Source: Ignavibacteriales bacterium (GTDB lineage Bacteria; Bacteroidota; Ignavibacteria; UBA10030). From it: DNA of 64,000 nt. Of this stretch, positions 3,131 through 63,584 are shown piece after piece (position 1 is the first letter of the stretch; every line of letters starts with the position of its first letter). The position numbers and the translations under genes are program-made. The DNA lies in contig JACPLA010000100.1 in assembly GCA_016186715.1 (NCBI GenBank), positions 157 to 64,156 on the forward strand. The letters run 5' to 3'. The notes beneath the pieces are model-generated. The model was not told where the DNA came from. It made no database searches and worked only from the letters and a program-made list of their open reading frames with translations.

Positions 3131-4369
3131 TCAGCCCGGTTGGCGAGATGTCTTGTTTTCAACGCGCACTTTGGACTCGTTCTCCAATTCGCGATTGATG
3201 GCTTTAAAGGGTCCTGAAACGACGTCCGCGCCTTCCAATCCTTCACCGGTGACCTCGACGTGGCTATCATCACTCAGACCGCGCTTCACAATGACCGTTT
3301 TTGCTTTGCCGTCGGCAACGACGAAAACGACCTCATCAAGGTCGTCGTCTTTCTTCTTCGATTTCTGCATGACCACTTCTCCCTCTGACGCATCCTCGGT
3401 TTTTTCTTTCTTCGGCGCCCGAACGGTTACGGACTGAATCGGAACGGCCAGTACGCTACCATGAGTCTCCGTTTCAATATCTGCTGTCATCGACATGCCG
3501 GGACGCAAACGGACATCTTCGGGAGTGTTCAGGAGGATCCGCACTTCAAAATTCGTCACCTGATCCTGGGTGCCGAGCCCCGTCGATTTCGCCGTATTGG
3601 CAATCTGCGAAACGATCCCGATGATCTTTCTGTCCATGTAAGCGTCTACCTCCACACGAGCTGTATCACCCATACTCACAAGAACGATGTCATTCTCTCC
3701 CACGTCCACGCGAGCCTCCATGCGCGAAAGATCGGCAATGGTCATGATCTCGGTGCCCTGGGTGAACGTGCTTCCGCTGACCCGCTCTCCGATTTCCGAG
3801 TTGAGCTGACTGACGACGCCGCTCATCGGCGCGTAGATCGTCGTTTTGGCGAGGGTTTCGCGTGCCTCTTTCAAAGAAGCATTCGCCTGCGCGTAAGAGG
3901 CTTTCGCGCTTTGAAAACTCGCGCGTGCAATCTCCATTTCTGCCTCGGAAACGAGTTTCTTTTCGAACAATTCTGAGACCCGCTTATGTTCCGATTCCGC
4001 TTTGACCAGATTCGCTTCACTCACCGCGAGGGCCGCCTGAGCACGCTCGTACTGTGCCTGGTACGCATCCGGCTTGATCCTCACGACGAGATCCCCCTTT
4101 CGGACACGCTGTCCCTCCCTCACCGGCAACTCGGTGATCTCTCCGCTTACTTCAGCATTGATCTTGACCTGAGTTTCCGGCTGAATCTTTCCCGTGGCCG
4201 TCACGATTTGAGTAATCGTCTTTCGCTCAACCTTTTCGGTCTGCACGGTAATGATGGTTTCCCGGCTACTCCCCATAATCACGAGGACGCCCAGCGCGAG
4301 CAGGACAGCACCTATACCTACCAGGATGATCAGTTTTTTCTTTGATTTTTTCTTTGTGTCATTTGCCAT
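3131..4369 (-). CDS. Efflux transporter periplasmic adaptor (HlyD/MacA family)
   Basis: N-terminal TM anchor, coiled-coil region, beta-barrel and MP domains. The track start at 4396 is a TTG; I prefer the ATG at 4367-4369 (MANDTKKK), which has GAAGGG upstream. Confidence 0.8.
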
Positions 4370-14157: not shown

Positions 14158-14506
14158 GTAAAATCTAGCCGTCCGATTCTATCGGATGGCGTGAAGAAAT
14201 GGTCGATTGGTTTTGCTTGTCAGGGGACACGCCTACCTATTCCATTCCCCACATGTGATTTCTCAGTTGAGGCGCGCCTAAACGAAGAAAGCACCCCGAA
14301 ATTCCAGAGCCTCCCCTGAGCTCTGAGAATCCACGGAGTGCTTTTCTTGTTACTCATTCAGTATACCATCTCTCACCTCCTTCCAGGGTGACTCGAGTCA
14401 CATTCGTAGTTTTTTCCTGACATCGTCTCAACGCTCTCAATTCTTGTCCAAAAAAAATCCCCCGATGGACTGCAGTCGGAGGAATCAAGAACTCGAGAAA
14501 AACCTC

Positions 14507-56127: not shown

Positions 56128-56418
56128 CTAGGATTCTGCCGGTTCGGTTCTTGCGGGTGCGTCAAACGCTTTGGGATCGCGGTAACTCTTATCGAACACC
56201 TGTGAGAAGAAATTCGGGTCCTGATAGTCGGTTTGCGCGATATCGCTGCTCCGGACCACCCAGAGGCTCACGCAGTCGAGCCGTCGTGCAAACTGATCGC
56301 GAGCCATCTGGAGCGCCATTTCCGGATCGGGGGCATGCACCGACCCGACATGCTCATGGGGCCTTCCGCGCCGGGATTGGTGGAAGACTTCATATGTTTC
56401 CCACTGTGTATCGCTCAT
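56128..56418 (-). CDS. paaB: 1,2-phenylacetyl-CoA epoxidase subunit PaaB
   Basis: About 96 aa. PaaB signature WEVF...[15 protein letters not shown]. Confidence 0.8.
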
Positions 56419-57353
56419 GCGGCATTCGCCCGCTTTGCCTTTGCGGCCAGAGCTTCCCGGACCCATCGGCCTTCTTCATGCGACCTCCGGCGAACGTCGA
56501 GGCGTTCCTTGTTCATCGGCCCGTCGCCGTTGATGACTCTTTTCAATTCCTCCCAATCCGGCTGCGTGAAGCGATAGTGACCAGCGGCCTCATCATAGAC
56601 ACAGTCGCGGTCGGGAACATCCAGTCCGAGCGCCCGGATCTGAGGGACGATGAGATCGACAAACTCCTGGCGCACCTGGTCATTCGTCTTGGTTTTGATC
56701 CGCCATCGCATGGCTTTTTCGGTGTGGGGGGACGCCTTGTCGGGCGGACCGGACATCATGAGAGTCGGATACCACCAGCGATGGATCGCGTCCTGGGCCA
56801 TCGCCCGTTGCGCAGGAGTTCCTTTGGCAAGAGCAACGATAGCGTCATATCCCTGTTTGATATGAAAAGACTCTTCGTAGCAAATCCTCTTCATCGCACG
56901 GGCATACGGGCCGTACGACCCTTGGGCCAGCATGGATTGGTTAATCACCGCGGCGGTGTCCACGAGCCACCCGATGACGCCCACGTCGGCCCAGGTCGGC
57001 GTGGGATAGTTAAACACGTTCGAATATTTGGCCTTCCCTGCCAGAAGTTCATCAATCATTTCTTCCCGGCTCTTCCCAAGCGTCTCGGCTGCACGGTATA
57101 GCAATTGACCGTGGCCCGCCTCATCCTGCACCTTGGCAACCAGGGTCAGCTTGCGGCGAAAGCCGGGGGCATAAGGGATCCACTTTCCTTCCGGAAGCTG
57201 TCCCACGATCTCGCTGTGAGCGTGCTGGCCGATCATTCTGATCAGGTTTTGCCGGTATTCGTCGGGCATCCAGTCGCCGGGCTCGACTTTGTCGCCGCGT
57301 GCCACCCGCGCTTCAAATTCGGTAAGTTGTTCGTTGTGTGATTTCTCGGTCAT
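56415..57353 (-). CDS. paaA: 1,2-phenylacetyl-CoA epoxidase catalytic subunit PaaA
   Basis: Diiron carboxylate motifs ([28 protein letters not shown]). Start at the ATG at 57351-57353. Confidence 0.85.
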
Positions 57354-57470
57354 AGAAAGAAACGAAGTGATCGTAGACCAGAATATAGCGATTTTTGGGG
57401 TTGAAGTAAACCTCCACTCTTTAAGTTTCTTCTTAACTGGGATTTCCGACGGCGATGATGCGCAAGCGTT

Positions 57471-57630
57471 GCAGAGTCCGATTCGCAATCGGACCTCATG
57501 GCCGCGGCCCGGCCTCGGATATTCGCCAGAGGCGAATGAGTCTTTGGCTCAAATCCGACGCCTTGTAGAGTCCGATTCGTAATCGGACCTCACAAGCCTT
57601 CGTGTGCGGTCGCGGACCGGACTCTACAAC
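57471..57630. repeat. REP-like hairpin/direct-repeat cluster (2 copies of ~28-bp unit RYAGAGTCCGATTCGYAATCGGACCTCA; nested 12-bp inverted repeat TTGTAGAGTCCG/CGGACTCTACAA)
   Basis: Copies at 57471-57498 and 57565-57592, each containing the hairpin TCCGATT-CGY-AATCGGA. A similar hairpin ATTCGCC-AGA-GGCGAAT lies at 57521-57537. Confidence 0.5.
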
Positions 57631-57866
57631 GTTGTTGTCTAGGGAACAAAGAAATCCCCCTTCGGGGGATTGGCAAAAGAATAAGCCGTCCCCGCCAGCC
57701 TATGATGTTTCAATGAGGCGGGCTGGGGCTTTAACCGGTGGCGATGAAGGCAACCCAAGTCCGCGCGCAAGCCCCATTCAACCATTCGCCATTTCACCAA
57801 TCACCAACCCCCTGTTACCTCATTTCGTTATAACCTTCGGAAGGTTAAGCCTTCCGAAGGTTCCCA

Positions 57867-58625
57867 TTACCGCATCGCCGTTAAAACCAGCTTAAACGCT
57901 GCCACGAACAGAACCGCTGCGAGGATTCTTCGCAAAACAACCGCGGTGAGAACCCTGGATCCTGCATAGGACCCTGCCAACCCTCCCACAAATGCTGCCG
58001 CAACGAACGGCCAAATCGCTCCGACTTCGAGACCTCCGCGTGCGAACCGACCCACGAGTCCCCCAAGCGAATTGACAACAATAAAAAATGCCGAAATCGC
58101 TGCGGTTTGCTTCATGGAGGCCCATCTCACCAGGATCATGATCGGACTGAGGAAAATTCCTCCCCCGACGCCGACAATTCCGGACAAAAAACCGATTCCA
58201 GCCCCCGCCCCAAGCGCAACCGGGAATGATGGTTGCACGGCTCTTTCTTCCGCTGTCTTTCCCATCGTGGCAGCGGCAAGTCGATATGCGGCAAACAAAA
58301 GAACCCCGGCCAAAAGAAGAAAGTAGATCGTCTCAGAAATCCGGATGTATCCGCCCAGAAATGCTGCCGGAATCGAGAGAAGAACAAAAGGCCAGGCAAG
58401 GCGGAATGAAAAATGACCTGCCCGAAGAAACTGCACCATGCCAATGCCGGCGACAAGAACATTCAGAACCAGGGCAGTGGTGGACATCAGGGAAGGTGAA
58501 ACGAGAAAAAACGAGAGGACAGCAAGGTAACCGGATGCGCCGCCATGTCCAACTGACGAGTAAAGGGCAGCAACGACAAGCATTAAAAGTGCGACTATCA
58601 AGAACTCAACGAGGGTAAGTTCCAT
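57867..58625 (-). CDS. TauE/SafE-family (DUF81) sulfite/anion exporter membrane protein
   Basis: 252 aa, about 8 TM helices. It shows the two Gly-rich internal repeats typical of the TauE/SafE family. Confidence 0.8.
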   Translation of the reverse strand: MELTLVEFLIVALLMLVVAALYSSVGHGGASGYLAVLSFFLVSPSLMSTTALVLNVLVAGIGMVQFLRAGHFSFRLAWPFVLLSIPAAFLGGYIRISETIYFLLLAGVLLFAAYRLAAATMGKTAEERAVQPSFPVALGAGAGIGFLSGIVGVGGGIFLSPIMILVRWASMKQTAAISAFFIVVNSLGGLVGRFARGGLEVGAIWPFVAAAFVGGLAGSYAGSRVLTAVVLRRILAAVLFVAAFKLVLTAMR

Positions 58626-62951: not shown

Positions 62952-63584
62952 TTATTCGAATCTCTGTGTCTTCCATTTTCTCGCCTTCCTGCTGTCCGTT
63001 TCCCAATTCAGGGGATTGTCGATAATGTATTGGCGGATTCTGTCTAGTTCACCCTCGTCGCGGATTATCCGATCATGGAACCGTTCCTGCCATTGGAAAT
63101 CGGCAAATCCTTCATCGTGGATTCGGCTGGTGCATTTGGATTTGAACTGCCCTAGGATAGAACCCAGGGAATTTGGTTTTAATTTGGGTTTTGGTTTTCC
63201 CGCAGGTGTCATACCCGTAGAGACGACCGGATCGGTCGTCTCTACGATGGGAACAACAAATGATTTTTCCCAATCCACAAATGGTATTTGACCTGACGAT
63301 GCCGCGGATTTGGATTCGTGGATCATGATTATTCCGTGCATATGATTCGGCATCACGCGCCATTCATCCAACGTAACCGTCGGCCGAATCGTCGGCGTCT
63401 TCAGCCATTCCTCTGCAACAATTTCCCCGATCTGTGACAGTTTCATTTGTCCGTTTGCAACATCACCAAACCACCAAATCATCCCTTCCGTGTCAATCGT
63501 TACAAAGTACGATCCGGGCGATGAATAGTCGAATCCTTTCAACCGCGCGGATTCAATCCGGTACTTCCCCTGAAATAGCGCCAT
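62952..63584 (-). CDS. REP-associated tyrosine transposase (RAYT; IS200/IS605 TnpA-like Y1 HUH transposase)
   Basis: HUH motif MPNHMHGII. A catalytic Tyr-containing C-terminal helix (RFHDRIIRDEGELDRIRQYIIDNP). Start at the ATG at 63582-63584. Confidence 0.75.
   Translation of the reverse strand: MALFQGKYRIESARLKGFDYSSPGSYFVTIDTEGMIWWFGDVANGQMKLSQIGEIVAEEWLKTPTIRPTVTLDEWRVMPNHMHGIIMIHESKSAASSGQIPFVDWEKSFVVPIVETTDPVVSTGMTPAGKPKPKLKPNSLGSILGQFKSKCTSRIHDEGFADFQWQERFHDRIIRDEGELDRIRQYIIDNPLNWETDSRKARKWKTQRFE

Follow-up and report, generated by a model that had tools for sequence, protein, structure and literature searches.

Probable GTAG-type REP elements in the gap upstream of paaA in an Ignavibacteriales bacterium

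Repetitive extragenic palindromic elements (REPs), the hairpin-forming REP doublets termed REPINs and tyrosine transposases associated with REPs (RAYTs) are well known as such. The GTAG-tagged REP super-family, which includes the REPs and bacterial interspersed mosaic elements (BIMEs) of E. coli and Pseudomonas, is characterized by an 8-bp stem with a 3-nt loop and an unpaired GTAG at one end (PMC3733652). Its members are extragenic and dispersed, form head-head dimers with spacers of 10-40 nt that are heteromeric (the stems of the two partners differ), occur occasionally in head-to-tail arrays, and flank RAYT genes. Di Nocera et al. (2013; PMC3733652) reported GTAG repeats from Proteobacteria, Cyanobacteria, Chloroflexi and the PVC group, and from Bacteroidetes/Chlorobi only repeats of the CGTC type. 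No description of REPs in Ignavibacteria was found in our literature searches. Here we analyze a 64-kb stretch of DNA from an Ignavibacteriales bacterium (assembly GCA_016186715.1, contig JACPLA010000100.1; "the window" refers to all 64,000 nucleotides), in which the 513-bp gap (57354-57866) between two minus-strand genes, a TauE-like gene and then paaA, carries direct repeats and a 12-nt inverted repeat. We conclude, with a probability of roughly 85%, that these repeats are three copies of a GTAG-type REP, present as passenger mobile DNA between a terminator and a promoter. Taken across related genomes, the family to which they would belong shows the above features of the GTAG-tagged super-family. 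It differs in its host lineage and in its core (GTAGAGTCCGATT...), which is specific to the present family.

Since both flanking genes are encoded on the minus strand, the gap is to be read on that strand, from the 3' end of the TauE-like gene towards paaA. The order is a 13-bp hairpin, about 125 nt that are unexplained, two terminator-like hairpins, the REP cluster and the putative paaA promoter. The gap is composite, and the REPs account for only part of it. The element is 24 nt long (GTAGAGTCC-GATT-CGY-AATC-GGAC, with a GTAG head, an 8-bp stem and a 3-nt loop) and three copies are present. Copy 2 (57565-57588, plus strand) is canonical, reads GTAGA-GTCCGATT-cgt-AATCGGAC, and is the best match to the covariance model of the family, R1 (42.2 bits); the core that it carries is the one found most often in other genomes (35 copies). 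Copy 1 (57471-57494, plus strand; 37.9 bits) is a singleton with GCAG in place of the GTAG head (GCAGA-GTCCGATT-cgc-AATCGGAC). Copy 3 (57604-57627, minus strand; 34.4 bits) is inverted and has one stem mismatch (GTAGA-GTCCGGTC-cgc-GACCGCAC). Copies 1 and 3 are among the 42 training sequences of R1, so that their scores are slightly inflated. With filters off, R1 has exactly three members in the window, all inside this one gap, and neither the covariance model nor a mismatch search identified further copies elsewhere in the 64 kb.

The repeats and hairpins listed by an earlier, sequence-only reading of this DNA are all present, with small corrections. It had placed two copies of a direct repeat at 57471 and 57565, each with a 3-nt loop and a 7-bp stem; the positions and the loop hold, and the stem is 8 bp (GTCCGATT/AATCGGAC). 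As a whole, the two copies of the direct repeat (57466-57498 versus 57560-57592) share 91% identity along 33 nt. The 64 kb contain exactly two occurrences of the 26-nt core, and two or more matches were found in none of 100 shuffles. The same reading had described a 12-bp inverted repeat enclosing one of the copies. The match is exact (TTGTAGAGTCCG at 57563 on the plus strand and at 57618-57629 on the minus strand), and it is explained by a doublet of copies 2 and 3, the latter being an inverted and slightly degenerate copy of the element. The doublet has its GTAG heads outside and a 15-nt spacer, within the 10-15 nt spacing class of other loci, and its two copies could fold together into one long hairpin, as REPINs do. 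The DNA fold of the cluster (57455-57640) is much better than those of shuffled sequences (z = -5.75). Only three segments of the gap (57464-57500, 57560-57595 and 57604-57632) resemble any of the other loci that were fetched.

A scan of 185,579 species-representative prokaryotic genomes for GAGTCCGATT-N3-AATCGGAC returned at least 110 stretches, and the figures given here hold among the matches listed. GTA lies directly 5' of the seed in 88 of 129 matches, giving GTAGAGTCCGATTNNNAATCGGAC, where about two would be expected by chance. These GTA-preceded matches are spread over at least 18 assemblies labelled Ignavibacteri* or Bacteroidota, and the three assemblies richest in exact-seed copies have at least 18, at least 14 and at least 12. 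Unrelated phyla contributed single matches with arbitrary flanks, in line with chance. Sequence conservation ends sharply at GTAG on one side and at the last stem base on the other.

The same loci contain another 45 hairpins headed by GTAGAGTC, with stems that are different and still complementary (GTCCATTT 20 times, GTCCGTTC five times, GTCCGGTC, the stem variant of copy 3, also five times, and others). Across 42 distinct 24-mers, 96% of cells are paired and compensatory changes are found at four of the eight stem pairs. Double-sided stem changes number 38, compared to 9.6 +/- 2.6 in shuffles (none of 500 shuffles reaches 38), and when the partner is slid by 1-3 columns as a control, the paired cells fall to 16-48%. 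Thus, the hairpin itself is conserved, beyond its primary sequence.

The elements are predominantly extragenic: 35% lie under an open reading frame (ORF) of at least 150 aa, compared to 83% of random positions. Among close neighbour pairs, 40 of 55 have an inverted arrangement in which the GTAG heads face outwards, with 10-38 nt between the two copies. The suggestion that the repeats belong to a dispersed REP-like family is borne out by the many loci in Ignavibacteriota/Bacteroidota genomes, with their GTAG heads, compensatory stems and inverted doublets, and by the RAYT genes that the elements flank in some of them (see below).

Two other arrangements were observed in this family. In assembly SCUC01 (loci L010, L025, L036, L059, L064, L074, L094 and L097) the REP forms part of a conserved unit of greater length (...GGGGCTGTCTCAAAAGTTGAAGAAC-REP-AAATTTTTAGCCGAAATTTTATCGAATTCTAC...) and the spacer to the partner REP is fixed at 34 nt, which suggests a larger unit with a conserved spacer, either a REPIN or similar to a miniature inverted-repeat transposable element (MITE). 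In assembly CAVSHI01 (L009, 2170-2390), and also in L102, there is a head-to-tail array of 6.9 units with a period of 32, made up of the 24-nt REP and an 8-nt spacer (AGGGAGCC). The array superficially resembles a tiny CRISPR array and is made of REP units.

In five metagenome-assembled genomes (L047, L099, L111, L026 and L063), elements, mostly doublets, lie on both sides of a gene of about 175 aa. All five proteins match the NCBIfam family REP_Tyr_transpos (86.6 bits for that of L047, with a cutoff of 80) and the best PDB match is to E. coli TnpA-REP (4ER8). They are about 60% identical and share invariant motifs: MPDH-H-L (the HUH motif, MPDH[IV]HL), WQ and Y-x-x-Y-N (Y-x-x-Y-N-S/C). The finding of five such genes within the 8-kb windows around 110 repeat loci is a REPtron arrangement. 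Described RAYT subclasses have YxxxNP (Table 1 of PMC6006769), in contrast to the Y-x-x-Y-N-S/C of the RAYTs flanked by the present element. A distant Y1-transposase-like ORF (VIMPSHFHWVV and YIHNNP motifs) was also noted in L033 (assembly CAWHAG01, 1465-2019), between REP copies at 1250 and 2545, and may represent another type of RAYT in a REP-rich genome.

These features are those of REPIN-RAYT systems (Bertels and Rainey, 2011, PMC3116915; Bertels et al., 2017, PMC5581495), in which an inverted REP pair with a short spacer can fold as one hairpin and the repeats also flank one transposase-like gene; for the present family, mobility of the doublets would follow by analogy. We tentatively suggest, at somewhat less than even odds, that the GTAGAGTCC-hairpin elements and the flanked RAYTs of about 175 aa constitute an undescribed REPIN-RAYT lineage of Ignavibacteria/FCB group, with a possible insertion preference or co-option at the paaA promoter. 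What is available for this family is a 24-nt consensus, stem covariation, the doublet architecture and five REPtrons. It provides a clean GTAG-type REP/RAYT system outside Proteobacteria and Cyanobacteria, where such systems have mostly been studied, and an independent lineage for comparison in work on REPIN-RAYT co-evolution.

By analogy with E. coli TnpA-REP, the REPs would be non-autonomous, and a single-copy RAYT of the HUH/Y1 type would recognize the folded, single-stranded hairpin, cut at GTAG and rejoin the ends, and in this way give rise to further extragenic copies. The unit that moves is likely the doublet. GTAG cleavage by a cognate RAYT on single-stranded DNA is known only for E. 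coli TnpA-REP (PMC3733652, PMC6006769). The cluster in the window would then have settled at a permissive place, with the terminator-like hairpins of the TauE-like gene on one side and the paaA promoter on the other.

The window itself encodes a RAYT-like protein (62952-63584, minus strand), as the sequence-only reading had observed, and the gene was put forward there as a possible mobilizer of the repeats. In favor of this possibility, the gene is only 5 kb from the REP cluster, NHMH (HUH), WQ and YIIDNP motifs can be read directly in its product, and there is a sub-cutoff profile match to NCBIfam NF047646 (REP_Tyr_transpos; 51 bits, cutoff 80). In addition, the gene contains, in frame, a perfect palindrome with 13-bp arms (GTAGAGACGACCG-atc-CGGTCGTCTCTAC; 63217-63245), whose first six bases, GTAGAG, are also those of the REPs. 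The profile match to Pfam Y1_Tnp is likewise below the cutoff (18.4 bits, cutoff 23), and a PDB sequence search with the protein returned no match. However, this palindrome has a different stem (ACGACCG) and belongs to a separate recurrent family, seen in 75 stretches of JGI metagenomes, frequently in arrays or doublets, and located inside homologues of the 62952 gene in L144, L161 and L173. The gene abuts its upstream neighbour and has no REP on either side. No similarity to the five REP-flanked RAYTs was detectable, and no homologue was identified in 772 kb around 110 REP loci, where the L047 type of RAYT was found five times. The gene also agrees with TnpA-REP subclass 2.4, which has NH[IFV]H, WQ and YIxNNP motifs and a REP inserted in the gene, and is found in Cyanobacteria, Bacteroidetes and Chlorobia (PMC6006769). 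The correspondence with subclass 2.4/RAYT Group 4 (Quentin et al., 2018, PMC6006769) extends to NH[IFV]H-like, WQ and YIxNNP-like motifs and an intragenic REP-type palindrome; it is a likeness to the published description, and the NCBIfam score stays below its cutoff (51 against 80).

Judged from its motifs and palindrome, the 62952 gene most likely represents a different RAYT subfamily with a different REP of its own. Because it has its own internal palindrome and belongs to another subfamily, it is probably not the mobilizer of the elements at 57.5 kb, and we consider mobilization by this gene quite unlikely. More probably, the mobilizer would be an L047-type RAYT encoded elsewhere in the source genome.

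The location of the cluster upstream of paaA raises the question of a role in control of the paa genes. The paaA gene (56415-57353, minus strand; Pfam PaaA_PaaC, 293 bits) is the first of paaABCD, and the gene upstream of it (57867-58625, minus strand) encodes a membrane protein of the TauE/SafE family (Pfam TauE, 109.8 bits). NCBI assigns an identical PaaA to an Ignavibacteriales metagenome-assembled genome. A promoter scan identified a putative paaA promoter, TTTACTTC-N17-TATATT, at 57382-57410 on the minus strand, 29 nt upstream of the ATG. The motif TTTACTTC-N17-TATMTT also occurs upstream of paaA in L113 (~3930-3965), L114 (~2843-2873), L200/201, L202, L204 and L205, and is conserved in at least seven lineages. 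It was read directly from the sequences, since a MAFFT alignment misplaced the window row due to a different spacing between the -10 and the ATG. This motif is likely the paaA promoter, as far as can be predicted from sequence. The 8-nt upstream box TTTACTTC is conserved beyond the needs of a plain -35 element, and might also be the site of a regulator or of an alternative sigma factor.

The REP cluster lies 60-240 nt upstream of the promoter and downstream of the terminator-like hairpins that follow the TauE-like gene. One explanation is that the repeats are operator sites of the paa operon: two 8-3-8 palindromes stand 94 bp apart, or about nine helical turns, which would allow looping. The geometry is operator-like, and the sites stand 60-200 nt upstream of the promoter. 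REP-like hairpins also occur upstream of paaA in some other lineages. In L116-118 there are three GTACAGTCCGGTC-cct-GACCGGAC units (L116, 2790-2875), and in L200/201 there is GTAGGCGTCCGTT-tct-AACGGACGC (1285-1313). These hairpins have GTAC or GTAG heads, and the upstream gene there encodes a TonB-dependent receptor. However, the position and orientation of the hairpins relative to the promoter vary among the lineages that have them, no regulator gene is adjacent, and the sequence of the element is present on the flanks of transposase genes and at scores of extragenic loci that are unrelated.

The comparison with relatives is also unfavorable to operators. Among relatives that share the gene order (response regulator, TauE, paaABCD), the closest is L113, in which PaaA is 87% identical, and none of the repeats is present in its 137-nt TauE-paaA gap. 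The elements are also absent from the gaps upstream of paaA in L114 (182 nt) and L119 (69 nt), and from the region upstream of paaA in L202 and L204. The absence from L113, L114 and L119 implies that the repeats are not a conserved part of paa regulation, and weighs against both operators and a leader RNA. Operator sites appear very improbable.

The sequence-only reading had offered a structured 5' leader of the paa operon as its alternative. We consider control of paa by such a leader, by a riboswitch or by a small RNA to be the least probable of the explanations. The region contains many stable hairpins and, at 57455-57640, folds far better than shuffles as DNA or RNA. However, every hairpin is upstream of the conserved promoter motif, which lies 29-58 nt from the ATG and leaves a leader of only about 20 nt. 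A canonical terminator is predicted between the upstream gene and the REPs, and outside the REP cores nothing is conserved in any relative. No Rfam family matches: there was no hit in the whole window at gathering thresholds, and a search of 57200-58000 at E values of up to 10 returned only noise (fragments of snoRNA, miRNA and CRISPR direct repeat families, with E of at least 1). A false lead can be removed, in that the phenylacetate (paa) genes would be preceded neither by a riboswitch or leader RNA nor by an array of operators.

It is also conceivable that the cluster arrived as mobile DNA and was then co-opted locally, either as a transcriptional insulator or nucleoid-protein site separating the TauE-like gene from paaA, or as a 3' stabilizer for transcripts that read through, which is compatible with the elements being REPs. 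REPs have been reported to bind integration host factor (IHF), gyrase and DNA polymerase I (Pol I) and to stabilize mRNA (PMC6006769, PMC3733652), and the hairpins upstream of paaA in other lineages also count in favor of co-option. On the other side are the lack of positional conservation and the absence of the elements from L113. We regard co-option as unlikely, and a side effect of the REPs on transcription or on nucleoid-protein binding here as possible. Overall, the elements at this locus are probably ordinary selfish DNA in neutral ground rather than paa control RNA.

Several points weigh against the interpretation of the repeats as passenger REPs. The three copies in the window are all in a single gap, and the source genome is known here from 64 kb only. 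The cognate, L047-type RAYT is absent from those 64 kb. With the GCAG head of copy 1 and the stem mismatch of copy 3, some of the copies may be decaying relics. Finally, REP-like hairpins occur upstream of paaA in three of the eight sampled lineages, that of the window included, and this recurrence could reflect a role specific to the locus or a preference in insertion. For the hairpins of the other lineages, we record insertion preference, shared ancestry or chance as candidate explanations; the recurrence is noted as unexplained, and not as evidence of function.

The remaining hairpins in the gap are of other kinds. Between copies 1 and 2 is the 7-bp hairpin ATTCGCC-aga-GGCGAAT, at 57521-57537 as had been reported, with no similarity to other loci. 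It is possibly a decayed partner of copy 1 and possibly due to chance; it was not assigned as such a partner, because the flanking GAGTCTTT matches GACTCTAC at only five of eight positions.

Further upstream relative to paaA, a terminator scan identified a hairpin resembling an intrinsic terminator, AATCCCCC-gaa-GGGGGATT, with TTCTTTGTT after it on the minus strand (57643-57671, with the hairpin at 57653-57671, one base from the start of 57652 given by the sequence-only reading). It has eight pairs, five of them GC, a tail of TCTTTGTTCC on the minus strand, and a sequence that is unique among the fetched loci. A second, weaker terminator-like hairpin, followed by TCTTTTGCC, is at 57681-57703 (minus strand). 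The first resembles rho-independent terminators in having a GC-rich 8-bp stem and then a T-run on the transcribed strand, and is a predicted terminator only. A perfect 13-bp hairpin (AACCTTCGGAAGG-cttaa-CCTTCCGAAGGTT; 57832-57862) begins 4 nt past the stop codon of the TauE-like gene. What had been taken for two CCTTCGGAAGG palindromes are the two arms of this single hairpin, which differs from rho-independent terminators in having no T-run. The AATCCCCC and CCTTCGGAAGG hairpins are unrelated to the REPs; they are unique in sequence and resemble 3'-end structures or terminators belonging to the upstream gene.

The stretch of approximately 125 nt that separates the post-stop hairpin from the terminators (57704-57831, minus strand) is unexplained. 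No Rfam match and no convincing ORF were identified in this segment, and no homologue of 57680-57830 was found in any fetched locus. The fold of 57640-57880 is just marginally better than those of shuffles (z-score -2.3). The segment could be a lineage-specific 3' untranslated region, or a small RNA that ends at the 57653-57671 terminator.

A hairpin said to be of similar type at 14190 is located at 14172-14187. It has a 6-bp stem and no GTAG head, and does not match R1 with filters off, so it is not a member of this family. Upstream of paaA in L114 (2730-2845), a ATCWGCGTAAATC-like motif occurs at least five times; this array may bind a regulator and has no relation to the REPs.

Within this gap lie the ends of five short-read (Logan) contigs that come from the same population (L001, L002 and L122-L124). 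Two with an identical PaaA end inside REP copy 2 (57570/57571), and three that approach from the other side end at the 13-bp hairpin (57832/57833). We rejected the contig ends in copy 2 as a sign of polymorphism or mobility of the REP, because three contigs also stop at the 13-bp hairpin, which is unrelated. It appears that these short-read assemblies are broken by strong hairpins, which would account for assembly breaks in such intergenic regions of these organisms.

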